Positions 2,987 through 24,091 are shown, counted from the first letter of the stretch. The stretch is 64,000 bases of DNA from an uncultured Gammaproteobacteria bacterium (GCA_964465205.1 CAYXJO010000004.1:9671-73670); one strand, 5' to 3'. The notes: generated by a model not told the origin, from the sequence alone. Made by a program: numbers and translations.

Positions 2987-5900
2987 CTATTTTCCACCAC
3001 CAGCTCGGACAACTTTTTTGGGAGCCGGAGCAGGGGTTGGTGCTGGTGCGGCTGTCTTCGCTTTTTGTTGTGAAGCAGGTTTGGTATCTGTTTTTGCATC
3101 CGGTTTGGCCACGGGTTTGGTGGTGGCTTTGGTAGCGGTCTTGGCTGTGGTCGCTTTCTTTTTTTCTGCCTGGGTTTCTTCCACAGTTAGTGCAGTTATC
3201 AAATCTTTTACAAAATTTCTTTTTTCGTCTACCAATTCATTAATCTCTTTAGCTTTAAATTTTGGGAACAGGCGAAAGATTATAGCTGCACTCATGGCAT
3301 CTTGTTCTGCGCCTGGAGTTGGTAATTTCTTTTCCGAATTTATCCACTCCACAATTTCGGCCACAAAATCCAACATAAAAGTTTTGTCCCATTTATCTTG
3401 GCTAATGCGATTTTCAATTATGGCGGATAATTTTTCGGCCATTTTTTCTTGGCCAGCCGGCGGTAAATTGGGGTGAGCCTCGGCTATGGCCTGCTGCATT
3501 TCTTTTTTAATCATTTTTTTGTCAGCCGGCAATAATTCCAAAGCCATGGCTGCTGCTAATTCTGGCGGCGGCGGGGGAGCATTTGGTGCTTCTGCGGCTG
3601 CGCCACCAGTATTTGGTGGATTGTGAGAAGGAATTTCTACTGCCGCTCCGGATTTGTCTGGTGGCGGGGGAGGATTGCCGGGAGAACCCTCGGGATTTGA
3701 CCCGGTCGGTTTTTTTTGCCCATCTTCTTCTTTTTTCATTTTATCTCCAGCTCCTGGTGGAGGAGTTTCGCCCTTGGGTGACTTTGGTGGTTTGTCACCA
3801 GATTTTTTGTCGTCTTTCTTTTTGTCTGGGTATTGTCCTGGTTCCAAAGGTTTGCGATCATTCATTGGCAATGGTATGAACCAAGGATTGTTTTCTGGTG
3901 GCGCGATAGAAATTTCGTCAACACCAATTTCGCGTGGGCGAAATACATAGTCGGTTATTTCTTTGGTTGCATTTGGCACTTCGCCACCTTTGCCTACCAT
4001 GGTAGCGAGTACATGAGCCTTGCCGTCCGAAGAAGAATTATAGACAATTTCCCAAGTCCAGCGAGCAGAACCGTCTTTGTTCATAAGAGTTTGACCCAAT
4101 GTGCCGGCTTTGTCTATAGCCAATTCACCGTTGGTCATCGGCACATCAAAACCATTGCCCGCATTAAAGTCGCCAGTAGTGGGGTCGTAAAAACGAATGT
4201 GGAAATTGCTGAAATCACCCTTGGCCAAATCCGCTTTCATGACATTGTACATGGTATCAATAGTGCCGTCGTAGTTTACTTTGCCATCACGCAACATATC
4301 GTTGATGCCTTTTTTGAAGCTGAATGTCCAATCTTTGCCACTGTCATTTAGCATGCCGCGCAATTCTTTGCCGTCGTGAATGTGACCGGAAGTTTTGAGT
4401 ACGGTACCAACATCGCGGTTTTCGTATTCGCAATGTATATGGCCGCTATTATCAGAGATATGTTCATGGCGATATACGTGGTGTAATGGTTCAATACGAT
4501 CCGGCACTTGATCAGGGCGTAGTTCACCTTTCATTACACTATCATGCAATCGCTCTCCTAATTTCAGTGCTTCGCCTGTTGTTCTGGGCGACAAATCCAT
4601 GTCATAATGATGCCCTGGCCCCATGGTATCGTGACTGGTAAGTTTGCCAGACCACGGATCCATGTTGTTGTGCCAAATACGCGGCGCGTTATTCATTTGG
4701 CCGCCTAATTTTTGTAATTCCGCGATTACAGCATCGTGGCCTTTGACAGTAATAGTGTGAGAAGTCATCCCCACATCCCAGCCAGCTTTGTCCATGAGTT
4801 GTATAGAATTCGGATTAATGGTAGCACCATCAGGATTGAGTTGAAAATTGCCCACGGTTTTATTATTTTCGTCGGTAATTAGCATTTCAAATCCGTTAGT
4901 CGGGGATTTGGGCGCAACATGCCAGCCGTGGGGAAGAGTGAATTTGGTATTGAGACCAGGCACTTGTACAGTATCTGGGGCCATGGCCGGACTAGCGACA
5001 TGTTCACCGGTTACTTCGGAGTGTAGATGATTACTTTCGAAAATTTTGAACCCTTTGTCACGCAATGCATCCAAGGTTTGTTGAGGCAAACCACCTTGGG
5101 GATCGGGTTTAATATGGTCCAAAATCACATTACCTTTTACATCCGCGAGTATATAAGTTCCAGTGGCTTTGTCTAGTCCTATTTTCAAGCTACTATCCAA
5201 CGCCATTTCAGTGTTGTTGGAAAGCAATACCCCCGGAGCGAAATTGGGTGGATAGCCAGCACCATCGGTTTTGAAATATTCGGTCATTTTGCCAATCCAA
5301 CTGTGATCGAAACTGTCGCGCATGGTGGTTACCGCACATTCGGCTACTGCACCAGCCGCGAAGCCTACTACCGCCCCCATTGCACCCGCTTTGACCATTT
5401 CTAAGCGTCGCCAGTTTTTGAAACGTGCATCAGTGTTTTCGATTTGAGTAGAAATATCGTCTATGGCTTTTTGGGTTTCGGCATGTAATACGTCAGGATT
5501 AATACCGTGTTGTTGTTCTATGCGTTTGAGTAGGATTTTAATTTGATTGATAGAAGCAATACGAGTATTTAGATTTTTGCCTTCTTCACGCGCGGCCGAG
5601 AATAAATCCACTTGCTTTTCAGATTCCACTGCCAAGGCGGCAAAAATTCTAGCTACATAAGCACGTTCTTCGGAATTAACTTGCCCAGCCGGCTGGCGTG
5701 ATAAATTATCCAAAAATGCCACCACTTCTTCGGTGTGTAGTTTGAGATAATCAAACTTGCGCATTTCTTTGGCTCGATCACCAACAGCTTCTTGACCCAG
5801 CGCCGAACGACGCATTTCCATGCCACGATCATATTCCACATCGCGTCCACGACGCAAAGCTCCCATTACACCACCCATTATTGAACCTACCACTGGTGCG

Positions 5901-8824
5901 GCTAGTAGTGCGCGCATCGACATGCTGGCAGCGCCTTTGGTTATGGCAGTGGCAGTGGCCGCCGCTCCGGCAGCCGCAAAGGTGATTGGGGAAGATAATA
6001 CTTTGCCCAGCACTGGTACACTTTGGGCTTTGTCCACCAATTTGGTAAACCAAGAACTTACAAACCGCGGTTTGGTTTCACGAATGTCGCGTTCTTTGAG
6101 GCCAAGTTGTATTTCCAAATTCATGATACCTTTCAAGTGGCCAAGAATAATTTCGCGATTTTCCGGTCCGTATTTTTTTTCCATTTCTTTGGTAGCATCC
6201 TCGACGTACTTTTTGTAACTTTCGGCCAATTGATAAAAATTATGTGCAAACAGCAAACCTTTGGCCTCTTCGTCGTTGGCATTGGTAAATTTGTAGCCTT
6301 TGCGTTTGATAATCGGCAATATTCTTTCTTCCACTGTGGCATCGAACAACTGGCGTGACATCAAATGCGCACCGCTAGCGTGATCGAAAATTAAATCAGC
6401 TAATTCAGCATTGACTTCGGCGTCGTTGATATATTCACCTTTTTCATTTTCTTCGGCCACTTCGGCGGCAAAGGTTTCTATGATATTATTCAGTACTTCA
6501 AAATGGCGAATTTCTTTGTCGCGGGTAATCGGTTTGCCTTCACTACGTGAAAGCAACGCCGCTTCGATTTCGGTCATGAGGTTTTTGTTTTTTTGGATTT
6601 CGTTTACTGATTCACGATAGAATTTATCCAAATATAATTTTTCACTCGGACGAATAAACATGGAGCTGCGCAATTGGCGCCCTACTTTTTTGGCGGTTTC
6701 CCATGGGTGGGTGACTGCCTCTTTGACACCATGGGCCAAACGACCAAAGAATCCGCGTTTGGGTTCTGGTGCCTGTGGTGGTTGAGCGTTGTTTGGATCA
6801 AGTCCGCGCATGTAGGCGTTGAGTTTTTCTTCGGCCTGCGACCAAGCCAAACGTTCTACTACTTTGGATACGTCGATAAGATACGCTCTGTTCGGCGGGC
6901 GAATTGGCTCTGGCTCTGGTATGCGGATCGGCTCTGGTTTGGGTTCTGGTGTTTCTGGTTTCGGTTCTTTTACTTTGTCATCATCTTCCGGCGGATTTTC
7001 CATAAAATTCAAATTTTCCGGTAAGACCGCCGTACTAATATTATCTTGTTCATCTTTGCCGAGTTTGCCATCTTCGCCTGGTTCATCTACACCCGGAACA
7101 CCTTTCTTTTTCTTGGGCAAAATTAATTCACGGCGTTTTTTGAGAGCACGTTCGGCCAGCAGCCAATTTTTCTCATCGTCACCGGTTTTGCGATGATCTT
7201 TGTGCACCAAGTATGCTTCGCGGCGTTTGCGCCACTCATCCCATTTATCGGTGGGTTCACTCGCGTTGGCATCAATTAATTTTATTACACTATCGATTTC
7301 TTTGGTGGCAGATTTGGTTTCGTCTTCAATTTTCGCGTCTAAATCCGCACTGTCCGCACCGGTGTCGGCTTTCATCTTGTCGAATTTTTGTTTGAGTTCA
7401 TCCACGGTTTGCTGGCGAATTTCTCTCAACGCTTCCAATAGATCGTCTACCGGAATACCTTCACGTCGGCAATTTTCGGAACCTTTGGATTCGCACACTT
7501 CGAATTTACCGTCATCAGTCTCGTCGCTTTCCAAATTTTCTTTGGCATCTTTCACAGCGGCTATTATCCACTTCAATCGTTCGGCGCCATCTGCTTTTTT
7601 ACCCATTTTATCCAAAGATTTTTTCAAAATACCCACCGCTTTGTCCACGGCTTGGAGTAATGATTCGCGCTCTGGCCCCTGCTCTTTGGCTTCGGCTTTG
7701 GCAGTTGGTTTGGCCTCTGGTTGAGGCATGTTTTCCGCCGCGTCATCTTGGGCGCTGGCATCCACCTTTTTTTTGTATTCGGCAATCATAGGTATTTTAC
7801 TTAAATATTTTTTATACATGTCAATATAATGGCCGCTCTTATCATCCGTGTTGCCATATCCACCAGCTTGGCTATCGTATTCGTAAGCCGGAGTGGTGAG
7901 ATCTTCCGCGCGAATCCAGTTTTCTTTGACGCCGTGCGAAGTCATCTTGGCTGCGTTGGATTCAATGCCGCCGATCCAGGCGCGCCCTTTTTTGTCGCGA
8001 CAAAAGACGTATGTTAAATTGTTATTTTTGGAAGGATAACATTCAAAGGTGATGGGCCCATACATTACCGATCCACCTTGCCAACTGTCGATCATTTTGC
8101 CAAAATCCGGTTCGTTGTTTTTGTCGTCGAAACCAATTTCACCTGGTGGTAATTTTTTCCCGTGGTTAGCCTTGGTCTCTTCGGGTGTGGCGGATTTGAC
8201 TTTAAAATTCCCGGGCAGATCTACAGGTTGAGAACTAACGTCGATTAGAAAAGAATGTCCTTTTTTGACAGCGTCATTATAGCGGGTGTCCAAATTGGCC
8301 GCTGTACCCATGAATACAAATTCAGCGTCGGGAATCGGTTTGATATTTTTATCATCCAAAGTCATTTCGGATAAAGCTTTTTGCATGGCGGCCGGCAACA
8401 TGATGGATTCTTCGCCGTATTCTTTGGAATACCAACCGGTGGCATAAGAGGCGAGTAGCCGCCACACGCCCTGAGAATTACTGCGCCAAAAAGAACGTGG
8501 CACCAAAGATCCACCTCGTTCGATAAATCCGGTTACCGCCGCGCGTCCACTACCGATATCGTATGGATGCGAAGATAGCCAGATATTTTGTCCACCCATT
8601 TCAATTTTATATTGGGGGAGGACGCCGTTTTTTTTGAAATCTTCCGGGGAAAGCATTTTGCCGTTATACTCGCTGGCACTGCCGGACAAGATAACTTTGT
8701 CCAGAAGTTTTTCGGCTTCGGTGTCGGGAACTTTTTCAATTTTAATTTTAAAACCAACTTGCGTAGGATTTTTCGCCTGATCTGGTGTTGAACGTTTAGT
8801 TTCGGCGTGGTTTTGTCCCGACAT
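2987..8824 (-). CDS. Giant 1945-aa multidomain protein with two Gly/Ala-rich TM hairpins, coiled-coil stretches, a His-rich region with a tandem SGHIH motif (M23-peptidase-like, uncertain), a poly-Pro linker and a Lys/Ala/Thr/Pro-rich C-terminal tail
   Basis: One uninterrupted minus-strand ORF. Hydrophobic Gly/Ala-rich segments encode VLGKVLSSPITFAAAGAAATATAITKGAASM (about nt 5830-5990) and MVKAGAMGAVVGFAAGAVAECAVTTM (about nt 5320-5400). The His-rich region at about nt 4380-4500 reads HHYDMD...SGHIHCEYENRD...SGHIHDGKE. A PPPPP run lies near nt 3600-3900. The C-terminal tail reads KKKATTAKTATKATTKPVAKPDAKTDTKPASQQKAKTAAPAPTPAPAPKK. Confidence 0.8.
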   Translation of the reverse strand: MSGQNHAETKRSTPDQAKNPTQVGFKIKIEKVPDTEAEKLLDKVILSGSASEYNGKMLSPEDFKKNGVLPQYKIEMGGQNIWLSSHPYDIGSGRAAVTGFIERGGSLVPRSFWRSNSQGVWRLLASYATGWYSKEYGEESIMLPAAMQKALSEMTLDDKNIKPIPDAEFVFMGTAANLDTRYNDAVKKGHSFLIDVSSQPVDLPGNFKVKSATPEETKANHGKKLPPGEIGFDDKNNEPDFGKMIDSWQGGSVMYGPITFECYPSKNNNLTYVFCRDKKGRAWIGGIESNAAKMTSHGVKENWIRAEDLTTPAYEYDSQAGGYGNTDDKSGHYIDMYKKYLSKIPMIAEYKKKVDASAQDDAAENMPQPEAKPTAKAEAKEQGPERESLLQAVDKAVGILKKSLDKMGKKADGAERLKWIIAAVKDAKENLESDETDDGKFEVCESKGSENCRREGIPVDDLLEALREIRQQTVDELKQKFDKMKADTGADSADLDAKIEDETKSATKEIDSVIKLIDANASEPTDKWDEWRKRREAYLVHKDHRKTGDDEKNWLLAERALKKRRELILPKKKKGVPGVDEPGEDGKLGKDEQDNISTAVLPENLNFMENPPEDDDKVKEPKPETPEPKPEPIRIPEPEPIRPPNRAYLIDVSKVVERLAWSQAEEKLNAYMRGLDPNNAQPPQAPEPKRGFFGRLAHGVKEAVTHPWETAKKVGRQLRSSMFIRPSEKLYLDKFYRESVNEIQKNKNLMTEIEAALLSRSEGKPITRDKEIRHFEVLNNIIETFAAEVAEENEKGEYINDAEVNAELADLIFDHASGAHLMSRQLFDATVEERILPIIKRKGYKFTNANDEEAKGLLFAHNFYQLAESYKKYVEDATKEMEKKYGPENREIILGHLKGIMNLEIQLGLKERDIRETKPRFVSSWFTKLVDKAQSVPVLGKVLSSPITFAAAGAAATATAITKGAASMSMRALLAAPVVGSIMGGVMGALRRGRDVEYDRGMEMRRSALGQEAVGDRAKEMRKFDYLKLHTEEVVAFLDNLSRQPAGQVNSEERAYVARIFAALAVESEKQVDLFSAAREEGKNLNTRIASINQIKILLKRIEQQHGINPDVLHAETQKAIDDISTQIENTDARFKNWRRLEMVKAGAMGAVVGFAAGAVAECAVTTMRDSFDHSWIGKMTEYFKTDGAGYPPNFAPGVLLSNNTEMALDSSLKIGLDKATGTYILADVKGNVILDHIKPDPQGGLPQQTLDALRDKGFKIFESNHLHSEVTGEHVASPAMAPDTVQVPGLNTKFTLPHGWHVAPKSPTNGFEMLITDENNKTVGNFQLNPDGATINPNSIQLMDKAGWDVGMTSHTITVKGHDAVIAELQKLGGQMNNAPRIWHNNMDPWSGKLTSHDTMGPGHHYDMDLSPRTTGEALKLGERLHDSVMKGELRPDQVPDRIEPLHHVYRHEHISDNSGHIHCEYENRDVGTVLKTSGHIHDGKELRGMLNDSGKDWTFSFKKGINDMLRDGKVNYDGTIDTMYNVMKADLAKGDFSNFHIRFYDPTTGDFNAGNGFDVPMTNGELAIDKAGTLGQTLMNKDGSARWTWEIVYNSSSDGKAHVLATMVGKGGEVPNATKEITDYVFRPREIGVDEISIAPPENNPWFIPLPMNDRKPLEPGQYPDKKKDDKKSGDKPPKSPKGETPPPGAGDKMKKEEDGQKKPTGSNPEGSPGNPPPPPDKSGAAVEIPSHNPPNTGGAAAEAPNAPPPPPELAAAMALELLPADKKMIKKEMQQAIAEAHPNLPPAGQEKMAEKLSAIIENRISQDKWDKTFMLDFVAEIVEWINSEKKLPTPGAEQDAMSAAIIFRLFPKFKAKEINELVDEKRNFVKDLITALTVEETQAEKKKATTAKTATKATTKPVAKPDAKTDTKPASQQKAKTAAPAPTPAPAPKKVVRAGGGK

Positions 8825-8849
8825 ATTTTGTAATTAATTATTTACAAAA

Positions 8850-9182
8850 TTATTCTTTTTTGGCACCGCCTACATATATAGAGCGGAACTCCATCATGGC
8901 GCGAGCGGTGACTTCGGGTAAATTGGGTATGTTAGCGATAAAAAAGTTGTGAACTGCTTCTTGGCCCGGGTTGGACTGCATGAGGGCGTCGAATAGCTCG
9001 GCGCTGTCATTGGGCAGGGCCTGGAGCAGGGAAGTCATAATATGATTCTGCATGCGACCGTATAAATCTTGCTTCATGGCGGCTTTGAGGTCGGCATTTA
9101 CCTCGGCACCGTGGGCTTCTTCGATTATTTTGTTCAAAAACAGATCGATTTCGGCGGGCATTTCCGGGGCTGAGTTGGGCAT
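8850..9182 (-). CDS. Hypothetical 110-aa protein sitting immediately upstream of the giant gene, likely co-transcribed with it
   Basis: ORF with host-like codon usage and a 25-nt gap to the start of the giant gene. No recognisable domain. Confidence 0.5.
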   Translation of the reverse strand: MPNSAPEMPAEIDLFLNKIIEEAHGAEVNADLKAAMKQDLYGRMQNHIMTSLLQALPNDSAELFDALMQSNPGQEAVHNFFIANIPNLPEVTARAMMEFRSIYVGGAKKE

Positions 9183-9667
9183 ATTATATATATAATGTAT
9201 AAAGCCAGCGTGGGCTGGTCCGCCGGGTGGCGGATTGTTTATACTTTATCGTATCACAAAATCCGCTTTTTTTCAAATTTGGCATAAAATGAATTTTGGC
9301 TAATATTAGCTAAATACGGCGGGGATGTGGATAACTTTATGTTCACCCCCTTGACAAAAGTCCAAAATCGTGATATAGTATTCTGTTATGAAATAATCGA
9401 GCAGCTTTTGAGAGAGGAGCAGCCCGATTGTGTCACTGAATACCCTCTCGCCCAAAGAGGTTTTTTGTTAAGTAATGGTTTACCTATCAGTTCGTTACAA
9501 TCTAGTAGTGAAGACTCTGGCACAAAGTTGTATATATCATATATATGGTAATCAGCTTTGTGCTAGAGTGTAGAATGTCCAGTGCGCGGAATAATCCGTA
9601 GCGCTTGGCAAAGATGTCCCCAAGGCGTGCCGCACAGCGGCCCAATTGAACCAAAAAGGAGCCTACC

Positions 9668-10513
9668 ATGTCCGACAAGAACCAGACCCCCGAAAACGGA
9701 ACCGAAACCAACCAGACCCCCGAAATCCCCAAGGACAAGAAGGAGAATCCCATGCCCGAACCGAAGAAGACCCTGCCCCAGAAGTTCGACTACAACACCG
9801 GCCGCGAGCCCAAACATGCCGACGGCAGCAACCACGGCGCGCTGTGGTTCGTCGCCATCGCGGCGCTCGTGCTCGCCATCGGCGGCCTGGCGCTCGGAAG
9901 CGTGAACTACAGCGACATCGGCGGCTTGACGACCCTCATCAAGGGCCACAGCACCGACATCGCCAACTTGGTCAAAGAGAACGACGCCCGCAAAGCCGAG
10001 AACGACGACATGTATCTCAACCACGTCATGCCGGCCGAGGACGCCATCAGCGGCCTCAAGGTTCGCATGAACACCGCCGAAGGCACCATCAACGCCCACG
10101 GCAAGGCCATCACGGACGCCGAGAAGAACATCGTGTGGCTCACCGGCCAGAACAAGAAGGTCAACAAGGCGCTCTCGGAAAATGCCGAAACCGTCAAGAA
10201 TCAGGGCAAGACCATCGGTCAGTACGGCCAGAATTTCGAAAAGGTCAACGGCACGCTCGTCAAGCACGACGACCGCCTCGACTCGCTCGAAAAACGCCCC
10301 ATGACCAACAAGGCCAATCCCTTGTCCACCGGCGGCCCCACGGTCCTGTGGTGCGCGGGCAGCCTGAACAACCGGTTCGGCTGTCTGAACGACAAGCCCG
10401 TCGAGAAAGAGGTCGACGCGATCAAGCTCGCCTGCGGACCCGGCGGCTCGAAGAACGTCGCGAAGTTCGAAAACGGAACTTACGGCGATTTCGCCCCGGT
10501 CAACTGCAACTAG
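9668..10513 (+). CDS. Membrane-anchored coiled-coil protein (281 aa) with a single N-terminal TM helix and a 4-Cys C-terminal domain. First gene of the GC-rich island.
   Basis: AAGGAG RBS 8 nt upstream of the ATG. TM segment ALWFVAIAALVLAIGGLALGSV. Heptad-like region rich in K/E/N. Cys residues in the last 60 aa. GC is about 62%. Confidence 0.7.
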   Translation: MSDKNQTPENGTETNQTPEIPKDKKENPMPEPKKTLPQKFDYNTGREPKHADGSNHGALWFVAIAALVLAIGGLALGSVNYSDIGGLTTLIKGHSTDIANLVKENDARKAENDDMYLNHVMPAEDAISGLKVRMNTAEGTINAHGKAITDAEKNIVWLTGQNKKVNKALSENAETVKNQGKTIGQYGQNFEKVNGTLVKHDDRLDSLEKRPMTNKANPLSTGGPTVLWCAGSLNNRFGCLNDKPVEKEVDAIKLACGPGGSKNVAKFENGTYGDFAPVNCN

Positions 10514-10777
10514 GCCACCTCACTACTACACATGCTCTTTCGGCGTGGGACCCTCCGGGGTTCCACGCCACTCTTACATTGTTTATGATAGTCCCTTTTT
10601 AGGGACATATCATAGACAGCGTAGGAGTTAAGTCCTTTACATTTTAGAAGTCGTTAAGACCTTTCTGAGAGTTCCTGGTACAAAGAGAGGAACTATTTTA
10701 GTTTCTGTCTCTGTACCATGAACTTATTACCCACGATGTTCGTCACTTTCCTGCCGCAATGGCAAAGGAGGCTCGCA

Positions 10778-11401
10778 ATGAAACACCTATCCCTGTCTTT
10801 GGCGTTTATCGCCGCCCTGCTCATCTTCGGTTCCTTGGCCAACGCCTCGGAAGCCGACAACCCGCCCGTTGGTTGGCAGAACATTCCTCAGCTCCCGGAA
10901 AACAAGGAAGCCTGCAAGCTCGTCCCGGCCCTCACCCTCTTCGGAGGCGGCGGCTATGTGACCGGCGTCGAGAATCGCGGCAAACAACACGGCGAAGGCT
11001 TCGGTCTGGCCGTGGGATCGCTCGCGTTCAGCTTCCGCGCCACCCAGCACTTCATCGTCACTCCGCAACTTGACTTCGGTCTGGGCGGAGCGAAGAATGG
11101 TCGCTGGACCAGCTCGCTTGGCGTTCTGTTCGGAGGCCGTACGTATGGCGACGGGTTTCGTTTGTCCGCCGGGTTTTCCTGGGTGACTTACAACAACCTG
11201 GCCATCAAGGACGGCGGCTGGTGGTTGAACGGCGTGGGATTCCCCGTCAAGATGGACTTTAAACCGTGGGACAACAAGTACCCGGTTTTCTTCTCCATCA
11301 TGGCGACCCCGTTCGTCGGTATCAACCGCGGCAAGCACACCGGCGGCGGCCTGGAATTCCTGGGCGCTGGCATCGGCGGCGACTTGCCCTCGCCATTCTG
11401 A
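10778..11401 (+). CDS. Secreted OMP-like small beta-barrel protein (208 aa, C-terminal Phe)
   Basis: AGGAGG RBS and a signal peptide MKHLSLSLAFIAALLIFGSLANA with an A-N-A cleavage site. Gly/aromatic-rich amphipathic strands. The protein ends ...DLPSPF. The ORF-track start at 10718 is an upstream in-frame extension. Confidence 0.5.
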   Translation: MKHLSLSLAFIAALLIFGSLANASEADNPPVGWQNIPQLPENKEACKLVPALTLFGGGGYVTGVENRGKQHGEGFGLAVGSLAFSFRATQHFIVTPQLDFGLGGAKNGRWTSSLGVLFGGRTYGDGFRLSAGFSWVTYNNLAIKDGGWWLNGVGFPVKMDFKPWDNKYPVFFSIMATPFVGINRGKHTGGGLEFLGAGIGGDLPSPF

Positions 11402-11421
11402 TCTCAACGACTTCTCAACCC

Positions 11422-11460
11422 AGGTGGGCCGAGCTTCAGCTCGGTCCCACCCATTTTTAG
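11422..11460 (+). terminator. Intrinsic terminator after the OMP-like gene
   Basis: Hairpin GTGGGCCGAGC-TTCA-GCTCGGTCCCAC followed by CCATTTTT. Confidence 0.6.
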
Positions 11461-11681
11461 TGGTCACAATGATTTGTGAATACTAAAAAAGACATAAATT
11501 TATTTGTGTCTTGAGTTCATTAAAATTCGGATTAGAAAAACAAACACTTGGTACAAAGTTGATTGTCTCTTTGGTAATTAGCTTTGTGCCAAGTGATAAA
11601 TTCGGCGAGGTACAAAGCGTAGTGCTTTGTCCGCCGGTGAAAATTGAAAGCGTGTTCTCTACCACAAAGGAGTTTGAAGCC

Positions 11682-13145
11682 ATGAAACACACGATGCTGC
11701 TGGTTCTGATTGCCCTGATCGCGGCCCTGTTCACCATCGGTTGTTCGGCGGCGGGCGAAGACGCCCCCCAGAACATCATCGACGGCGACTCGACCGTGGA
11801 CGGCGACACCAACGAGGCCACCGAGGCCGACGGCGACTCCCAGGCCGAAGACGGGGATACCACGGAAGCGACCGAAGAGGAAAGCGAAAGCGAAACCTCG
11901 GACGGCGACTCGACCGTGGACGGCGACTCGAACGAAGGCGAACAGCCCGAGACCGAAGAAGCCGACACCGACACCACCCCCTACATCTGCCCCGGCACGA
12001 AGTTCGTGACCGGGCCGGCCGTGACCTGGCTGCAGAGCTGGGCCACCGGCGAGGAAAATCCCATCGACGCCGCCGGCACGTCTTGCACGTGTCCGGAAAG
12101 CGGCTGCGGACAGCAGCCCTGCGCGTGGTTGAACCCGCCGCGGAACTCGCGCATCACCACCTCGAACGGCACCTGCACCACCGAAGGCGACGACATCACC
12201 CTGTGCTACTACATGTCGCCGAGCCCGTCTCAGGAAACGTATGCGCCTTTCGTTACCCCCCAGGGTACGAAAGTCTGCACGCATGACGGACTTTACAGCG
12301 GCGCCCACGTCGAAGTCGACGGCGACACCGATACGGTGCTCCCCGACGGCGACTCGAACGAAGGCGAAGAAGAGGTGGACAACACCGAGACCGCCGACGG
12401 GGACATCGTTCCCGACGGGGACTCGGATACCACCGAGGCCGAACAAGAAGCCGACACGGAAGTCCCGGTGAACGAATGCCTGAGCAATGCGAATTGCGAC
12501 GACGGCCAAGCGTGCACCTATGACGAGTGCGTGTTTCTCACTTCGGGCAACCGCTGCGTTCGTTCGAACGAGGCCAACGGATCGCATTGCGACCCTGGCG
12601 TCAGCTTCGACGACGGATACTGCTACGAGGGTTCCTGCCACGGTTTCAACAACTGCGAGTCGAACCTCGACTGCCCCATGATTGACAACTGCAACTCGCA
12701 GCTCTGCATCATGGGCGAGTGTTACCCCAGCGAATCGGCGCCCCGTCCGGGCATTACCTGCGACGACGACAACCCCGATACCTACAGCGACGTTTGCAAC
12801 AGCAACGGCGTCTGCGAGGGAACTCCCAACGGGCAACAGACCGGTTTCGGGACTTGGGCCCTGCTGTTCGGCATGACCAATTGCCCCTCCTGGACGGTCG
12901 GCATCGACCATACCGGCAATGAGTCCGGCCCGAATGCTGAACACCAGGAAGACAGCGTCTGCTATTCCCGCACTGTGGGCGACAATCAAGCCCATTCGAT
13001 CTGGGGCCACATTGACCCCTGGGGTACGCAGCCTCCGGCCGGAATGAAGGTGCTCTGCACCACAAAGTACGGTACCCAATATTGGACCCCATGGGTTCAG
13101 GGTAACGGCGGCTGGTGGTTCGTCTGTTCCAACGACGGCCACTAA
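11682..13145 (+). CDS. Acidic Cys-rich secreted lipoprotein (487 aa), paralog of the next gene
   Basis: AGGAG RBS. Lipoprotein signal MKHTMLLVLIALIAALFTIGC (lipobox TIGC). The segment after the lipobox Cys is a DGD/TE/EA acidic low-complexity linker. The C-terminal half has many Cys in CxDG.xC patterns. The ORF-track start at 11511 is an in-frame upstream extension through the leader. Confidence 0.75.
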   Translation: MKHTMLLVLIALIAALFTIGCSAAGEDAPQNIIDGDSTVDGDTNEATEADGDSQAEDGDTTEATEEESESETSDGDSTVDGDSNEGEQPETEEADTDTTPYICPGTKFVTGPAVTWLQSWATGEENPIDAAGTSCTCPESGCGQQPCAWLNPPRNSRITTSNGTCTTEGDDITLCYYMSPSPSQETYAPFVTPQGTKVCTHDGLYSGAHVEVDGDTDTVLPDGDSNEGEEEVDNTETADGDIVPDGDSDTTEAEQEADTEVPVNECLSNANCDDGQACTYDECVFLTSGNRCVRSNEANGSHCDPGVSFDDGYCYEGSCHGFNNCESNLDCPMIDNCNSQLCIMGECYPSESAPRPGITCDDDNPDTYSDVCNSNGVCEGTPNGQQTGFGTWALLFGMTNCPSWTVGIDHTGNESGPNAEHQEDSVCYSRTVGDNQAHSIWGHIDPWGTQPPAGMKVLCTTKYGTQYWTPWVQGNGGWWFVCSNDGH

Positions 13146-13493
13146 ACCACCCCACCCGCACGGCGGGCTAATCCGATCACATAACCTAGGGCGGCAGGCT
13201 TCGGCTTGCCCCCTAGGCCTTTTACTTGAGATCATTATTCGTAGTGCTCTCAAGAAAAAGTTGTTTACCAACTATAGAAATTTCCTTACCTGCGGGCGCT
13301 TGTCCTTGTGCGTGAGGTTCGGGAGATTTTTGTGGTGGATAGGCAACTATCCAACATGATCCACTGTGTCTCTCTCCCAGTGGATTTTTGTTTCAACGGA
13401 GAGTTGCCCTTTGAAAATTGAGGATTAGAAAAACAACAACACACACGTCCACGTCTCGTTCCCATCTTTGCATGAAGAAAGGAGAAAATTCTC

Positions 13494-16400
13494 ATGCACC
13501 ACACGTCCCTTTCCCAAAAGTTACTTTTTGTGCTCTCGGTCTTGGCATTTCTCGTGATTGCTGGCTGTGGGAGCACCACCGTTACTACTGACGCCAATGA
13601 CGGCGACATGGAAGCGGTGGAATTGGACAATTCCGATGGGGACGAACCCATCAATGACGGCGACATCGAAAAAACGGAAGCCGAAGCCGACCAGGCCGAA
13701 GCGGAAGAAGATTCGACGGAAGCCGACACCGACACCGACGGCGACACGGAAGTTGAAAATTGCCAGAACTGGTACCCGGTTACCCCGCAGGTTGCTTTTT
13801 GCGATCTATTGGAGGAAGACCTCGGCCGCTTGGAGCGGATTTGCTACCAAGAGCAGCCGTCGCGACGCGAATGCTCGACCACCAAGGTCGGCGCGATCGG
13901 TTTCCAGTGCTCTATGGGAGCTACCTTCGTCATTTGCTATGACACGAATGGCGCGCCGGTTACCCCGGTCGTCTGTATCGTGAATGGCGAACGGACGCCG
14001 GCGATGGATAGCATCGCGGACACGGGTTTCCCGGGTTGCGACTATACCGTCATGCCGGTGGACGGCGACGAAGAGGAAGGCGAAAGCGAAGGCGAGACTG
14101 AAGAAGTCGAACCGGCCGACGGCGACACGGAAGTTTTGCCTGACGGCGACACCGAAGAGGTGCTCCCCGATGGCGATACGACCGAACAGCCCGAGGCCGA
14201 AGCTGAGGCGGACAACACCGAAGCCGTCGACGGGGACATTATTCCCGACGGCGACTCGGATATCACCGAGATCGACTCTGACCCCGAGTTGCCCCCGGTT
14301 TGCGAACCGGCGTGCGTGAGCGACGATCCTTGCAAACAGGCGGTGTGCGTCAATGGCACCTGCTTGTACGATTTGCTCACGGGCCTCGCCTGCGACGACG
14401 GCAACGCCTGCACGCGCGTGGATACGTGCTTGCTGGGCGAGTGCATCGGCGGCGACGAAGTCGTGTGTCAGGCCCTGGACCAGTGCCATTTGGTGGGGGA
14501 ATGTAACCCCGCCACCGGCACCTGCACCAGCCCGGCCGCAAACGACGGCACGCCCTGCAACGACGTGAGTCTCTGCACCACCCTCGACACCTGTTTGTCC
14601 GGCGTGTGCGGCGGCGCCGCCGTCGTGTGCAATGATAACAACGGTTGCACGAACGACTCGTGCGACCCGGAGCACGGCTGCGCGTTCGAACCAAATCTCA
14701 ACGCTTGCGACGATCACAACGCTTGCACCACGGGCGACATCTGTTCGAACGGCGGCTGCAGCGGCACGACCATCTCCTGCGACGATCTCAACCCCTGCAC
14801 CGACGACTCGTGCGACGCCGTTCTCGGCTGTCGCCATGTGCCCAACACCGCGTCCTGCGACGATGGCAATTGGTGCACGGTCGGCGACGTGTGCGGAGGC
14901 GGCACCTGCCACTCCGGCGCCACGCGCGACTGTTCAACCTTTGACTCGCAGTGCTCTAAAGGCATCTGCGACGAAGCCAACGATCAGTGCGTCAGCGATC
15001 CGCGTCCCCTCGAAGGGAAGTTGTGCGACGCCGACGCCAACGGCTGCACCAAAGACGATTACTGCCACGCGGGCGACTGCGTGAAGGGTACCGTCGTGGA
15101 CTGCACCGGGCAGAACGACCAGTGCAATACTGGCGTCTGCTATTCGACCGGCAACAATTCGTCCGTCTGCCTCAAGGACCCGACGCCGAAGCAGGGTAAC
15201 ATCTGCGACGACGGGGCCTATTGCACCATGGGGGAAACTTGCAACAACGGGGAGTGCATGAACGGCACCGCCCGCAATTGCACCGTTTTCACCGATCAAT
15301 GCAACGTGGGTACGTGCGACGAAACGCACGACACCTGCGTTCCTGTGGCCGTGGTAAACGGAACGGTCTGCAACGACGACAGCCTCTGCACCCAGAGCGA
15401 CACATGTCAATTTGGGATTTGCAAAGGCGATAACCCCGTCGTGTGTGGAGCACAGGACCAGTGCCATTTCGTGGGCACTTGTAACCCGTCCACCGGGACG
15501 TGTTCGAATCCGGTCAAACCGGACAACACGACCTGCGATGACGGTTCGCTGTGCACCAAGGAAGACAAGTGTACGGCCGGCACCTGCGGAGGCAGCACCG
15601 TTTTGTGCGACGACAACAATGTTTGCACGGACGACGTCTGTTTGCCTAAGGCCGGATGTCTGCACGCCAACAACTTCAACCCCTGCGACGACGGCAACGC
15701 CTGTACGCAGGGCGACATGTGCGGATACGGTCGATGCGAGGGCGAAGCGGTCGTCTGCGATGATGGCAACGTCTGCACGGACGACTATTGCGACATCGCC
15801 GCCGGCTGCAAAGCGGCTTTAAACGCCGCCCCTTGCGACGACAGCAACGCCTGCACCCAGGTTGACACCTGCTTGCTCGGTCAGTGCGTCGGGGGCAACC
15901 CTAAGACGTGCCCGGCCGAAGACGAATGCACCTATGCCGGCATCTGCGAACCGTCGGACGGGTTGTGTCGTGTTCAGTTCAAGCCTGAAGGTCTGCGTTG
16001 CAACGATAACGACAGTTGTACCGTCGGCGAGTACTGCGCTCTCGGTGTGTGCGGCGATGGCATTAGCCCCTGTGGCAGCCAGCACTGTCAGCCGATGAGT
16101 CCGAGCGGATACTACTGCTCGGAGTGTTGGAACGACGGCGATTGTCAGAGTGGATTCGCGTGCCTGCATCACGTTTGCGTCGATACCGCATGCGACGATG
16201 ACAATGCCTGTACGGTCGATACATTCAATCCGGTTATGGGTTGTCGCCACGATCAACGCACCTGCGACGACGGCAACGCCTGCACGTTCGACTTCTGCGA
16301 CACCATCGCCGGCTGCAAAACATTCCCGCTTTCGGGGATCGCGTGTAGCTCGGCCGATCCGAACGTGTGCAATGTGTATAAATGCAGCGCCGGGTCGTGC

Positions 16401-17069
16401 GATTACGATCACATGAAGAATTGCACGGACTACGACCGCACCACGGCCGATTCGTGCAACCCAACCACTGGCGAATGCATATACGACCCCATCCCCACCG
16501 ACGGCGACAGCGACGGCGATACCGAAACTGAAGCCGAGATTGATATAACCGACGGCGACCTCGACACCGAGAACGACACCGAAGAAACGCCGGCGTGCAT
16601 CCCGGCCAACTGCGACGACCAAAACCCCTATACGACGGATATTTGCGAGGCCGGCAACTGCCGCCACGTGGATAATCTCGCGCGGGCCTTTGTAATGCAG
16701 TTGCCGATTAACACCCAGATCACCAACGTGATCTTGTGGCCCACTGCGGGCACCGGCTATATCCATGACTACGTCGTCGCCACCGAATTACCAAAGGTTG
16801 ACACCAACGGCGACAGCGTGGTGGATTCGTACGAACTGGATATCTTGGCCGAGTTCTTGGCCGGACGTATCACGGAGCTGCCCGGTTCCGCCCAGGTGAT
16901 CTACCCGGGGTGGGACGGCGACGGCTTCCCGTGTTCGCCGCCTACGCCTACCGGCATCTGTCTGCTCAGCGACGGCACCACCGTTCAGCTGGTCTGGATG
17001 GCGGGCGGTCGTAACGCCCTTGGATGCCCATGGGACGGAGCGGTCGGATTCCCGATCGTTTGTCACTAA
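13494..17069 (+). CDS. Giant acidic lipoprotein (1191 aa) made of about 20 tandem 38-42-aa Cys-rich repeats (C[DN]DGNACT.[DG]D.C..G.C). These resemble the Myxococcus-type cysteine-rich repeat. A C-terminal dockerin/EF-hand-like loop reads DTNGDSVVDSYELD.
   Basis: RBS GAAAGGAG. Lipobox IAGC in MHHTSLSQKLLFVLSVLAFLVIAGC. Acidic DGDTE linkers. The linker DNTEAVDGDIIPDGDSDITE is nearly identical to DNTETADGDIVPDGDSDTTE in the upstream paralog. GC3 is very high. Confidence 0.8.
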   Translation: MHHTSLSQKLLFVLSVLAFLVIAGCGSTTVTTDANDGDMEAVELDNSDGDEPINDGDIEKTEAEADQAEAEEDSTEADTDTDGDTEVENCQNWYPVTPQVAFCDLLEEDLGRLERICYQEQPSRRECSTTKVGAIGFQCSMGATFVICYDTNGAPVTPVVCIVNGERTPAMDSIADTGFPGCDYTVMPVDGDEEEGESEGETEEVEPADGDTEVLPDGDTEEVLPDGDTTEQPEAEAEADNTEAVDGDIIPDGDSDITEIDSDPELPPVCEPACVSDDPCKQAVCVNGTCLYDLLTGLACDDGNACTRVDTCLLGECIGGDEVVCQALDQCHLVGECNPATGTCTSPAANDGTPCNDVSLCTTLDTCLSGVCGGAAVVCNDNNGCTNDSCDPEHGCAFEPNLNACDDHNACTTGDICSNGGCSGTTISCDDLNPCTDDSCDAVLGCRHVPNTASCDDGNWCTVGDVCGGGTCHSGATRDCSTFDSQCSKGICDEANDQCVSDPRPLEGKLCDADANGCTKDDYCHAGDCVKGTVVDCTGQNDQCNTGVCYSTGNNSSVCLKDPTPKQGNICDDGAYCTMGETCNNGECMNGTARNCTVFTDQCNVGTCDETHDTCVPVAVVNGTVCNDDSLCTQSDTCQFGICKGDNPVVCGAQDQCHFVGTCNPSTGTCSNPVKPDNTTCDDGSLCTKEDKCTAGTCGGSTVLCDDNNVCTDDVCLPKAGCLHANNFNPCDDGNACTQGDMCGYGRCEGEAVVCDDGNVCTDDYCDIAAGCKAALNAAPCDDSNACTQVDTCLLGQCVGGNPKTCPAEDECTYAGICEPSDGLCRVQFKPEGLRCNDNDSCTVGEYCALGVCGDGISPCGSQHCQPMSPSGYYCSECWNDGDCQSGFACLHHVCVDTACDDDNACTVDTFNPVMGCRHDQRTCDDGNACTFDFCDTIAGCKTFPLSGIACSSADPNVCNVYKCSAGSCDYDHMKNCTDYDRTTADSCNPTTGECIYDPIPTDGDSDGDTETEAEIDITDGDLDTENDTEETPACIPANCDDQNPYTTDICEAGNCRHVDNLARAFVMQLPINTQITNVILWPTAGTGYIHDYVVATELPKVDTNGDSVVDSYELDILAEFLAGRITELPGSAQVIYPGWDGDGFPCSPPTPTGICLLSDGTTVQLVWMAGGRNALGCPWDGAVGFPIVCH

Positions 17070-17078
17070 TCCTCAACG

Positions 17079-17140
17079 CCCCCTAGGGGGCACAACCGGC
17101 TCGGGGGGGGGAGAAATCTCCCCCCGGCCAAATATTTTTC
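17079..17140 (+). terminator. GC-rich palindromes and terminator at the end of the island
   Basis: Perfect palindrome CCCCCTAGGGGG, followed by hairpin GGGGGGGGAGAAATCTCCCCCC and a T-run. Confidence 0.5.
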
Positions 17141-17267
17141 TATCAATCAAATGCTTGAATACAAAAATTATTCAAACATCCGATTGGCAGATTAATTTCC
17201 GCCAAAACAAAAATTCCACCTTTTTCTCTCTCTAGGTGGATTTTTGTTTTCAAAAACAAATAAAAAA

Positions 17268-17389: not shown

Positions 17390-18787
17390 TTAGGATGTTG
17401 TTTTTGAACTCCAAAAACCCCACATCGTCCAGATCCACCATATCACCGGCGTATGATGCAACATATTATCTGACACACTCAGTGCCAAATACACAAGAAT
17501 CGAAGAGATGAACACAATATTTGTCCAACTACTATTCCACCCGATTTTTAATTGTGTCAAAAATAGCGTCAAGTAAATAGTGACAAATAACAGTAATCCG
17601 ATAATGCCAGTCTCGAACCCTACTTTAAGATAATCATTGTGCGCTTCTGAGGTATTATCCCAAATATTTTTAACCGGTTTATTATCATCCCACACTTTGG
17701 CAAAAGCGCCATACCCATAGCCAATTATAGGGTGCTCGAAATATAGTGGTAATACTTTGTTGGCTACATCGGCGCGCCACTGAATGGAGTCGGCTTCTTG
17801 ATTACGAGTGGTCAAACGCGCGATTAGTGAATTGGACTGCAAATTAATATTGAATTCGTCTGTCAAAAAATTATTTACCGGATAAAACAAAATATAGAAT
17901 ACTCCCACCGACAGAGCCAGCTCTATTAGTAGTTTTGGCCGATAAATAATCCCAAGGATTATTAAAAATATCAGTAATCCTAGCCAGGCAATACGAGTAT
18001 AAGTAAAGGCCACTATGAGTGCCAATAATATCAGCGCTACAATTAATATGTTCTGTTTTTGAACAAAAATTTTGTTCACCCATGAATCGCTGATTTGGAA
18101 AAGTGGGCGATTGTGCAAGTGTACAAGATATCTATCGGCTATGGCCATAAAAATTAGCAAGGCAAAGGTGGCCATGATGTTGGGGTGAGCGAATGTACCA
18201 TAGATTCTGTTGGGCGTACCGTCGATAGTCATACCGGAATGGGTAATAAACTGGAAAATAGCCACGGTGATAGGTACTATGGCCGAAGAGAATAATGCCC
18301 AGTGTAGCCAGTGACCGTATTTATCTTTGTTTTTTTGATACAAAACGAAAGAAATACCAAATAGTGCAAATAAGTCGAGCGCCTTTACTGTTTCTATAAT
18401 AGTAGTGCTTTTATCGTGGCTCCAAACAAAACTAATCAAACACCAGGCGCAAAAACATATCCATAATTTTTTGAGTGGGATTTTATGCCAGTATTCCGAG
18501 TTTTTGAGAAAGAAGTAAGCAGACCACACCAAAAGAATGCCGGCCAGAGCCGCGTTGATGTTGATATGAATATTTTCATAAGAAAAAATCATCACATCTC
18601 GCCATTGATCGATCGCTGGTCGCGCCACGAGTAGTATCAAGACAGTGTATTCTTTGAAGGTGGCGTGCAAAAGCAAGAACAATAATGCCAAAAAGGCCAG
18701 TATATTAATATTGGTGATTGGGTTGAAGATGATAGTGAGGGTGAATAGTACGGCGAGCCAAGCTATCCCCGGCATTTTCATTTGCAT
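17390..18787 (-). CDS. O-antigen ligase/polymerase family (Wzy_C-like) polytopic membrane protein
   Basis: More than 10 predicted TM helices. Motifs FAHPNIMATF and AHNDYLKVGFETGIIGLLLF are typical of WaaL/O-antigen ligase periplasmic loops. Confidence 0.65.
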   Translation of the reverse strand: MQMKMPGIAWLAVLFTLTIIFNPITNINILAFLALLFLLLHATFKEYTVLILLVARPAIDQWRDVMIFSYENIHININAALAGILLVWSAYFFLKNSEYWHKIPLKKLWICFCAWCLISFVWSHDKSTTIIETVKALDLFALFGISFVLYQKNKDKYGHWLHWALFSSAIVPITVAIFQFITHSGMTIDGTPNRIYGTFAHPNIMATFALLIFMAIADRYLVHLHNRPLFQISDSWVNKIFVQKQNILIVALILLALIVAFTYTRIAWLGLLIFLIILGIIYRPKLLIELALSVGVFYILFYPVNNFLTDEFNINLQSNSLIARLTTRNQEADSIQWRADVANKVLPLYFEHPIIGYGYGAFAKVWDDNKPVKNIWDNTSEAHNDYLKVGFETGIIGLLLFVTIYLTLFLTQLKIGWNSSWTNIVFISSILVYLALSVSDNMLHHTPVIWWIWTMWGFWSSKTTS

Positions 18788-23160: not shown

Positions 23161-23164
23161 TTTT

Positions 23165-24091
23165 TTATTTGCCGGTAAAAATACAGACTACCGGCCCGCT
23201 GAATATATGGCCGGCGGCGAGCGCTTGTTGCAAGCCGACAATTGCCAGTGCGCTGTTGGTAGAAATTTCAATGTTTGCGGTTTGTTTTACGAGTTCAATT
23301 GCGGATTTTATTTCAGCATCCGTTGCTACCCAGCCCAATCCTTGGCTGTTTTTTAATACTGTCAAAATTTTGTTTTTGCGATGCGCTATTTTATCTACAA
23401 TCGCGCCAGCCAAAGATGTGTTGGTTGGCACTGTGGCGATATTGGTTACCAGTGGATGGCAAGCGGAGGTTTGAACTATGTGTATTTGTGGATTTATTTT
23501 GATTTTTTGAAAAGCTTCATATAGACCTTGGGCGGTGGTGCCGCTACTGGTCGGTATAAATACGGCCGATAAATTTTTTATCTCGGCCAGTTCTTGGGCC
23601 AGTTCGGTATAGCCAACGAGCGCTATATCATCGGTAGATTGGCGCAGGTTTTTTATCGCACCACCACAGATACCGGTCTGACAACCGTCTTTTTCGCTTT
23701 GGAAGGCCGTTTGTTTGGGATTGGATACTTGTTGCATCTCTATCGCCGGATCCGACGTGATAATATCTTGCAAAATTTTTAATTTATCGGCATTAATTTT
23801 CTTACCAACAAAAATAGTTAACGAAATCTTATCGGTGTGATCGTGGTTGTGGGCGGCAATTGTAATAGCGGCGGCGATAGCCGCATTGCCCGAAGAAGCG
23901 ATTACAAAATTTCGCACACCGGCGGATAAATAATATTCAATCATCGCGGGAATCGATCGCCCTTTGTGTGAAAGTAAAGGGTGTAAATCTTCACGTTTCA
24001 AATATAGCGGTGTGTTGAGGCCGATTTTTGTCGCCAGTTTTTCGAATTGTATTTGAGGAGTTATCATGTTGATAAATTTTTTTGACAACAA
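23165..24091 (-). CDS. PLP-dependent enzyme, fold type II (threonine-synthase / cysteine-synthase-like)
   Basis: Putative PLP lysine in LLSHKGRS. Gly-rich loops SSGNAAIAAA and TSSGTTAQG. The true start may be the internal MITPQ. Confidence 0.55.
   Translation of the reverse strand: MLSKKFINMITPQIQFEKLATKIGLNTPLYLKREDLHPLLSHKGRSIPAMIEYYLSAGVRNFVIASSGNAAIAAAITIAAHNHDHTDKISLTIFVGKKINADKLKILQDIITSDPAIEMQQVSNPKQTAFQSEKDGCQTGICGGAIKNLRQSTDDIALVGYTELAQELAEIKNLSAVFIPTSSGTTAQGLYEAFQKIKINPQIHIVQTSACHPLVTNIATVPTNTSLAGAIVDKIAHRKNKILTVLKNSQGLGWVATDAEIKSAIELVKQTANIEISTNSALAIVGLQQALAAGHIFSGPVVCIFTGK

Follow-up and report, generated by a model that had tools for sequence, protein, structure and literature searches.

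The 64-kb window of DNA analysed here (64,000 nucleotides of an uncultured bacterium, GCA_964465205.1 CAYXJO010000004.1:9671-73670; coordinates count from the first nucleotide of this whole stretch) contains at 9556-17255 a block of four genes for envelope proteins whose guanine-plus-cytosine (GC) content departs sharply from that of the surrounding genes. A preliminary description of the sequence had taken this block for a foreign island received from a GC-rich diderm bacterium. The block is 58.6% GC, compared with 42.9% for the remainder of the window; 82 other 7.7-kb windows within it average 42.8% (standard deviation 1.5) and reach at most 46.1%. Tetranucleotide distance from the rest of the sequence is highest at 10-18 kb (0.53-0.66, compared with 0.12-0.24 elsewhere). 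Both of the profiles that the preliminary description had proposed, sliding-window GC and tetranucleotide frequency, thus single out the block, confirming that the GC jump is real and lies far outside the window's own variation; the sharp block that had been described is borne out, but its figures were off, being about 59% rather than 62% GC against a background of 43% rather than 39%.

The four genes, all on the plus strand, are designated I1 to I4. I1 (9668-10513) encodes a 281-amino-acid (aa) protein that spans the membrane once: a cytoplasmic N-terminal tail precedes the transmembrane helix, and an extracellular coiled coil and then a small C-terminal part containing Cys follow it; it has a weak match to the DUF16 coiled coil in Pfam and to nothing else there. 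I2 (10778-11401) encodes a 207-aa protein with a signal peptide, a Gly/aromatic-rich all-beta domain and a terminal Phe. Its start was assigned to the ATG at 10778, which follows a Shine-Dalgarno (SD) sequence, and not to the ATG at 10718, which has none. A low-confidence single-sequence structure model (predicted local distance difference test score, pLDDT, 48) predicts a small up-and-down beta-barrel of the OmpA/OmpW/PagL/NspA type, and the C-terminus (...DLPSPF) carries an aromatic beta-signal; its positional equivalents in relatives end in ...GWRF, ...FGFRF and ...LTYDF. Neither I2 nor these equivalents gave a sequence match in Pfam, NCBIfam or the PDB, and a PDB profile search with the I2 group yielded nothing meaningful. 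I3 (11682-13145) and I4 (13494-17069) encode lipoproteins of 487 and 1191 aa, both with acidic linkers (DGD/E-rich in I3), a Cys-containing N-terminal domain and a lineage-specific C-terminal domain. Their lipoboxes, FTIGC (...ALFTIGC/SAAG) and VIAGC (...FLVIAGC/GST), were read by eye, and orthologues of the lipoproteins in relatives carry equivalent ones. Between the terminal domains, I3 has short Cys-rich repeats and I4 about 740 aa of Dicty_CTDC (PF00526) repeats, matched in five stretches with 66.4 bits against a cut-off of 27 (E 1.8e-18); I3 falls below the Pfam threshold for this family, yet the repeats are common to both proteins. The genes of the block are internally repetitive, I1 being single-copy and non-repetitive. 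The earlier characterization of the products as a coiled-coil membrane protein, a barrel resembling an outer-membrane protein (OMP) and two acidic Cys-repeat lipoproteins holds. Because of their domain make-up and fast divergence (37-48% identity to a close relative, compared with 63-80% for flanking proteins), the products are likely to be exposed envelope proteins that bind a partner or a surface.

The compositional shift lies almost wholly at third codon positions. Third-position GC (GC3) is 0.89, 0.78, 0.80 and 0.76 in I1 to I4, respectively, compared with 0.33-0.48 in most host genes, in agreement with the GC-rich codon usage inside the block and AT-rich usage outside it that had been reported. 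Third positions in the four genes are mainly C (0.52-0.61), and codons ending in A are nearly absent with the exception of GAA, which stays the main Glu codon. The three spacers within the block are host-like (GC 0.41-0.47). Amino-acid composition was considered as a cause of the high GC and rejected, since GC at first and second positions barely differs from that of host genes. As also noted previously, the block has no visible means of mobility: no integrase or transposase Pfam domain was found in or beside it, there is no tRNA target near it (the window's only tRNA lies at 50.5 kb), and no direct repeats were found flanking it.

Each of the four genes carries AAGGAG(G) 6-8 nt before its ATG, whereas nearly all other genes of the window lack an SD sequence, just as the preliminary description had it. 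These sites lie on the plus strand at 9656-9661 (AAGGAG, I1), 10764-10771 (AAAGGAGG, I2), 11666-11672 (I3, located by a Shine-Dalgarno scan) and 13478-13484 (AAAGGAG, I4). The same division is seen in relatives, where an anti-SD duplex of -7 kcal/mol or stronger is found at 52% of GC3-rich open reading frames (ORFs) and 5% of low-GC3 ORFs. Many genes outside the block have a TATAAT 6-20 nt before the ATG; because this box sits just upstream of so many SD-less genes, leaderless or very short-leader mRNAs suggest themselves, and translation of that kind may be the default in this genome. Housekeeping genes lack an SD almost without exception even inside apparent operons, for example at 8850-9182, 17390-18787, 26268-26915 and 28921-30126, all on the minus strand.

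Five small host genes outside the block reach a GC3 of 0.57-0.65. Among genes in this range are 59281-59781 (a 166-aa lipoprotein) and 59922-60530 (an HD-domain protein), both SD-led and with TACAAT-type promoters, together with 43253-43765 (a membrane-anchored Cys-rich protein) and 8850-9182 (a DUF5663 protein). Such moderately raised genes may be weaker members of the same class.

A promoter-like motif of consensus GTTCTTTACAAT recurs upstream of the GC-rich genes and is specific to them. The form GTTCNTTAMAA[AT] was found no more than 300 nt upstream of 13 of 32 GC3-rich ORFs and of none of 205 low-GC3 ORFs (Fisher p=4e-13); as several of the 32 are antisense shadow ORFs, 13/32 understates the real share. 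All 15 exact matches in the relatives' loci lie on the cassette strand. In the window, the motif stands on the plus strand at 9490-9501 (GTTCGTTACAAT), 178 nt upstream of the I1 start codon, and at 11515-11526 (GTTCATTAAAAT), inside a block upstream of I3 (11484-11535, plus strand) that is 87% identical to the close relative; looser copies precede I2 and I4. A large hairpin begins about 15-25 nt past the motif. In I1 it spans 9514-9569 (core GGCACAAAG...CTTTGTGC) with 17-nt arms that are 88% complementary, and the leader as a whole is strongly structured (folding z = -6.1). A hairpin search located the I2 counterpart (GGTACAAAGAGAG...CTCTCTGTACC) at 10670-10724, and the I3 leader, which is homologous to that of I1, has two hairpins at 11545-11641 (GGTACAAAG...CTTTGTGCC, then GGTACAAAGC...GCTTTGTCC), all on the plus strand. 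The hairpin core GGYACAAAG occurs five times in the window, where 0.96 are expected, and always in island spacers. Leaders are 100-300 nt long; past the first hairpin their mean GC is 0.54, compared with 0.41 upstream of the motif. The I1 leader is thus already GC-enriched, which is why the jump had been placed at 9556 and not at the start codon. Within the genomes of relatives the leaders undergo concerted evolution (216 nt at 100% identity in L012, 113 nt at 92% in L003). At the Rfam gathering threshold a tRNA was the only match in the window, and no known RNA family fits the leaders or the I3-I4 spacer.

GC-rich terminator hairpins, another element of the preliminary description, were found after each of the four genes. 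Those following I1 and I2 lie at 10542-10569 and 11426-11447 on the plus strand. At the right boundary (17079-17250), GC-rich terminator hairpins at 17079-17133 give way to a conserved AT-rich block and a hairpin readable on both strands (17205-17250). The I3-I4 spacer (13216-13422, plus strand) contains a promoter-like GTTGTTTACCAAC, nested hairpins and, at 13359-13393, a terminator-like hairpin with a CU-rich loop (CCACTG-TGTCTCTCTCC-CAGTGG-ATTTTTGTTT) that recurs at the right edge of the island, at 17220-17249 (repeat family D15). This spacer element may be an attenuator or a small RNA. Upstream of the I1 motif and leader lies a near-consensus sigma-70-like promoter, TTGACA-17-TATAGT (9351-9379, plus strand, 11/12 matches), and about 65 nt past it a terminator-like hairpin with a T-run (9444-9470, the terminator-like site being 9444-9460, plus strand), so placed that 9351-9470 may specify a short independent transcript or an attenuator ahead of I1.

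The flanks of the block are ordinary and include genes for a Wzy-type ligase, a radical SAM protein (rSAM), a glycosyltransferase, a GHL15/FG-GAP protein, MurC, MraY, ClpB and a DUF5663 protein. Scanning contigs representing one genome per species with the rSAM protein recovered 23 loci at identities of 63% or less. Since these came mostly from metagenome-assembled genomes (MAGs) of Candidatus Magasanikbacteria/Patescibacteria, the host is a Magasanikbacterium, a tiny groundwater bacterium of the Candidate Phyla Radiation (CPR, or Patescibacteria) with no close sequenced relative in the one-genome-per-species set. Directly left of the block, 2987-8824 on the minus strand encodes a 1945-aa protein with Pro/Lys-rich low-complexity stretches, several hydrophobic segments and no Pfam match; no homologue of it was seen in the relatives' loci, so that synteny on the left side is not conserved.

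At least 10 independent Magasanikbacteria MAGs or metagenome contigs carry a GC3-rich cassette beside Wzy-rSAM-GT1-GHL15, with flanking proteins 50-80% identical to those of the window. Blocks of GC 0.64-0.73 were found in L001, L003, L004, L005, L007, L011, L012, L013, L017 and L018. The block adjoins Wzy and rSAM in L007, L011 and L012, and in others of the ten it exits the contig end beside them; no Wzy homologue was detected in L001, L003 and L017, and low-GC genes separate the block from rSAM in L001 and L003. At this junction L024 and L026, two further loci, likewise run into GC-rich coding sequence. These cassettes share a build: a single-pass membrane protein with an extracellular coiled coil (and, in some, an N-terminal zinc ribbon) is followed by a signal-peptide beta protein of about 200 aa with a Gly/aromatic, beta-rich body and an aromatic last residue, and then by one or more acidic Cys-repeat lipoproteins. 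Their GC3 is 0.70-0.89 by one tally and 0.70-0.95 by another, compared with 0.32-0.42 in adjacent housekeeping genes, and most show the GAA quirk. I4-like ORFs are present in most relatives with enough of the block on the contig, the cassette lipoproteins are 30-45% identical between genomes, and outside the relatives' cassettes no homologues of the I3 and I4 C-terminal domains were found. A more distant relative of 32% GC, L021, has an analogous SD-led pair with GC3 mildly raised (0.31-0.35, compared with 0.18-0.24). The preliminary description had held that GC-rich homologues throughout close relatives would mark the block as ancestral rather than acquired; the comparison with related genomes that it proposed places equivalent GC3-rich cassettes at the same locus in at least ten of them, L006 being without one, and by this standard its foreign island fails.

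Several relatives carry GC3-rich genes beyond the cassette itself. One or two extra coiled-coil membrane genes, some of them SD-led, stand between GHL15 and the next gene in L001 (14442-15242), L003 (14609-15148), L007 (14397-15284), L012 (14307-15158) and L009 (7854-9656); in L003, the leader of this gene is 92% identical to that of the first gene of the cassette. The corresponding position in the window, 23160-23165, holds no gene or spacer. L002 has two GC3-rich, SD-led paralogues (6424-7311 and 8726-9598) that are 51% identical to each other and have neither a signal peptide nor a Pfam match; given these, the GC-rich class may extend beyond exported proteins. MopE-type "putative metal-binding motif" repeats (PF11617) replace or accompany Dicty_CTDC in cassettes of L005 (2112-3236), L013 (313-1854) and L017 (1060-2220), the repeat type being exchangeable within one cassette frame.

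The closest relative allowed the turnover of synonymous sites to be followed. A metagenome scan with Wzy gave three loci; the flanks of L024 are 63-80% identical to the window, and the right-boundary segment 17112-17250 is 87% identical to it. The contigs of L024 and L026 stop 130-380 bp inside a GC-rich gene converging on Wzy. A search of 1.84 billion representative proteins gave a single real homologue of I3, P0121; it is the orthologue in the close relative and lies on three short contigs (L027-L029), of which one comes from the metagenome that also yielded L024. On these contigs the order I2-I3-I4 is kept, with the same SD sites, GC3 of 0.64-0.78 and spacers of 0.43-0.46 GC. The I3-I4 spacer (about 200 nt) is 88-90% identical between the two lineages, beside proteins that are only 37% (I3) and 48% (I4) identical. 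At fourfold sites under identical residues, the island orthologues share the third base at frequencies of 0.36-0.51, where 0.31-0.41 is expected at saturation, and GC at these sites (GC4) stays at 0.69-0.83 on either side; saturation is less advanced in the flanking genes (0.40-0.46, compared with 0.25-0.29). Because the synonymous sites are near saturation yet still GC-rich in both lineages, the composition stands at a maintained equilibrium and is not the decaying mark of a donor.

The island of the L024 population was recovered only as fragments of 2.6-4.2 kb, and the locus seems to break assemblies, with repeats, strain variation or coverage bias as candidate causes. In the spacer after Wzy (9860-10200), L024 also has several copies of a short, miniature-repeat-like sequence (GTTTGTCATTCCGAC...) with hairpins, which is absent from the window. 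Swapping of cassettes between the strains of L027 and L029 was considered and rejected: the two are 96% identical, have an identical I3 and carry the same I4 allele with local variation at the start of I4 only.

The protein searches gave no donor. A word-indexed search of 5.8 billion proteins returned no homologues of I1 or I2, and a scan of viral contigs with I3 found no relatives. All 120 listed matches of I4 run through residues 290-1030, the Dicty_CTDC repeats, at 32-45% identity, and none of them covers its N- or C-terminal domain; these end domains match the cassettes of relatives and nothing else. The few matches with a named source come mostly from MAGs of Myxococcales/Deltaproteobacteria, with one from Binatia. 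The contigs of two matches, P0012 and P0106, are uniformly 73% and 60% GC, and that of P0106 carries tandem Dicty_CTDC lipoproteins with a GC3 of about 0.76. The high-GC diderm donor that had been envisaged finds little backing here, as I1 and I2 have no homologues among the proteins searched, I3 has one in its own lineage, and I4 resembles outside proteins in its repeats alone. There is no evidence of a recent transfer from GC-rich bacteria; an old transfer of the repeat module is possible.

These data have led us to consider the block as probably the local copy of a vertically inherited, fast-diverging cell-surface cassette that is conserved in this clade of Magasanikbacteria. Each gene of the cassette would form its own transcription unit, in which a GTTCTTTACAAT-type motif is followed by a leader of 100-300 nt (a large hairpin first, GC-rich sequence after it), a strong SD, a coding region of GC3 0.7-0.9 and GC-rich terminator hairpins. 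Its composition would be kept by selection on the transcript and on its translation. The likeliest benefit would be that, in a cell with few ribosomes, the mRNAs of abundant envelope proteins last long and are translated efficiently, an end that could be served alike by the hairpin at the 5' end, the strong ones at the 3' end, the SD and the GC-rich body. The proteins probably let the cell attach to or interact with a partner cell or a surface, which would be why they diversify quickly. Selection for mRNA stability and translation is preferred with moderate confidence over mutation bias or regional conversion as the cause of the GC richness, because the bias is maintained, is strongest at third positions, favours C on the coding strand and starts in the 5' leader.

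Transcription-linked mutation bias was rejected as a cause. Deamination linked to transcription is expected to give a skew opposite to that of a C3-rich coding strand, and the coding strand here is C3-rich (0.52-0.61) and not G3- or T3-rich, opposite also to the local replication skew.

Several observations weigh against our interpretation. A third-position shift of +0.4 with near loss of A-ending codons far exceeds ordinary translational selection and is unexpected in a 43% GC genome. High expression, mRNA stability and the transcription start (placed from the motif) are themselves read from sequence. According to Tsurumaki et al. (PMC9297842), about half of Parcubacteria 16S genes lack the anti-SD motif, which bears on the reading of the SD sites. 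Profile comparison detected no homology between I1 or I2 and the first and second cassette genes of distant relatives, so that, the closest relative excepted, it is by position and architecture that they are taken as equivalent there. L006, one of the relatives, lacks a cassette at the locus, and arrays of Dicty_CTDC lipoproteins occur in bacteria that are uniformly 60-73% GC, which makes an old transfer of the module conceivable.

Such an ancient transfer, in which a GC-rich diderm that uses SD sites, for instance one of the Myxococcota, gave the clade's ancestor an envelope cassette or, at a minimum, its Cys-repeat lipoprotein, and selection then kept the donor-like composition and signals, concerns origin only and is compatible with a cassette inherited within the clade since. 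For a phylum generally described as monoderm, and a genome poor in SD sites, the OMP-like barrel and the use of SD recall a diderm; the repeat-borne I4 matches, with their mostly Myxococcales/Deltaproteobacteria sources and the uniformly GC-rich contigs of P0012 and P0106, point the same way. At 32-45% identity, the similarity nevertheless does not extend beyond a low-complexity Cys repeat, nothing homologous to I1, I2 or the terminal domains was found in other lineages, the promoter motif is class-specific within the clade's own genomes, and the distant, 32% GC L021 has an analogous SD-led cassette with GC3 only mildly raised, all of which makes this origin unlikely. GC-biased gene conversion would account differently for the same composition: at a recombination hot spot for surface antigens, biased mismatch repair would push the coding parts towards GC, with the spacers as anchors. 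The spacers at 88-90% identity beside highly diverged coding regions, the concerted evolution of leaders, the internal repetition of the genes and the breakage of two relatives' metagenome contigs just inside the island would all fit. However, GC is raised as C on the coding strand, mainly at third positions, and strand-neutral conversion would not prefer C over G; over their first 70 nt the leaders that clearly are converting reach a GC of just 0.38, the top GC3 belongs to I1, a single-copy gene without internal repeats, and L027 and L029, with an identical I3, share one I4 allele with no sign of a swapped cassette. We therefore regard conversion as a quite improbable cause.

The cassettes might alternatively have been imported repeatedly and recently, each genome separately acquiring a GC-rich block at an insertion hot spot, an account to which we give very little credence. 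Gene content does vary between relatives (for example, first genes with a Zn-ribbon or with a plain coiled coil), L006 lacks the cassette and some relatives have additional GC-rich genes at other positions; but gene order and spacers are conserved in the close relative, multiple genomes share the class-specific promoter motif, the borders have neither mobility genes nor repeats, and there are no outside homologues or viral relatives from which to import. It is hardly conceivable that misassembly or faulty binning fused a GC-rich contig and one of a CPR bacterium into a chimera, as this would explain the sharp change of composition only, while different studies have independently assembled the same arrangement at least 10 times, L024 matches the right junction at 87% identity and the internal spacers are host-like in composition. 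The preliminary description was right to dismiss a chimera, on the strength of these assemblies and of the L024 junction; the shared hairpin motifs to which it appealed are common to the island leaders and do not occur outside.

The inherited surface cassette could be extended to a more general proposal, to which we attach modest weight and which is best treated as tentative: one CPR genome may run two expression regimes, an AT-rich, SD-less majority, apparently with short leaders or none, and an envelope regulon marked by motif, leader, SD and GC3 and kept under selection. If true, the two regimes could allow the cell to shift translation from housekeeping to surface or attachment programmes and back, as between free and host-attached states. 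A more extreme version would have the cassette tuned to the expression machinery of a GC-rich diderm partner, as an OMP-like barrel would need an outer membrane.

Anomalies of this kind are routinely scored as horizontal transfer, and calling islands from GC and codon usage would mislabel these CPR genes, whose unusual composition is stably inherited and belongs to the gene class as a whole. Contigs break often at this locus, a hint that MAGs frequently lack it. Should the class form its own expression regime, the combination of motif, leader, SD and GC3 style would give a handle on the surface proteins of uncultured, host-dependent bacteria, and it offers a natural setting in which to study how synonymous sites are kept 40 points over genomic GC. 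The predicted OMP-like barrel, in a phylum thought to be without an outer membrane, is a lead on how these cells touch their partners. In the literature on GC and codon anomalies, OMP-like proteins and SD or leaderless usage in Magasanikbacteria, CPR and Patescibacteria, we found no description of such a gene class.

Among known systems, the locus resembles highly expressed envelope genes with stabilized mRNA. The hairpin in the ompA 5' untranslated region and the leaders of S-layer genes are examples of mRNA stabilization, and S-layer and OMP genes of this type share with the block a monocistronic organization, a long leader opened by a hairpin, a strong SD, biased codons, strong terminators and an envelope product. 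The hairpin near the 5' end, the strong SD and the strong terminator are all found in the block genes, with the transcription start inferred from the motif. The block differs in the size of its GC3 shift (+0.4, with almost no A-ending codons) and in that the rest of the genome is apparently SD-free. For a secreted factor, vacA of Helicobacter pylori, an effect of a 5' stem-loop is documented (PMC4843948). With the Myxococcota-type Dicty_CTDC proteins, many of them large secreted proteins or lipoproteins, I4 shares about 740 aa of repeats above the Pfam cut-off; its host is a low-GC CPR bacterium, its end domains are lineage-specific, and identity to outside proteins is at most 45%, in the repeats only. 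The likeness of I2 to eight-stranded OMP barrels (the OmpA N-terminal domain, OmpW, NspA, PagL) is limited by a lack of any sequence-profile match and by a model pLDDT of 48; CPR bacteria are generally described as having no outer membrane.

Genes for adhesins with elevated GC are known from the reduced, low-GC genomes of mycoplasmas, namely the P1 operon of Mycoplasma pneumoniae with its RepMP elements and MgPa of Mycoplasma genitalium. Like the block, these are surface genes with GC well above that of their genome, in host-dependent bacteria, and they evolve fast; the block differs in showing no sign of dispersed repeat archives, in its larger GC shift and in its distinct promoter and SD signals. 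A classical genomic island resembles the block in its sharp GC and codon anomaly, accessory envelope genes and fast divergence. The block, however, comes without an integrase, tRNA target or direct repeats, keeps its place in the genomes of divergent relatives, is stationary in composition, and has host-like spacers and a lineage-wide promoter motif. Of five features of acquired islands it shows one, atypical composition, and lacks mobility signals, patchy distribution, donor homologues and decaying composition. The foreign-island interpretation is accordingly not upheld, and our verdict is that the block is a lineage-conserved regulon of GC3-rich, SD-led surface-protein genes.

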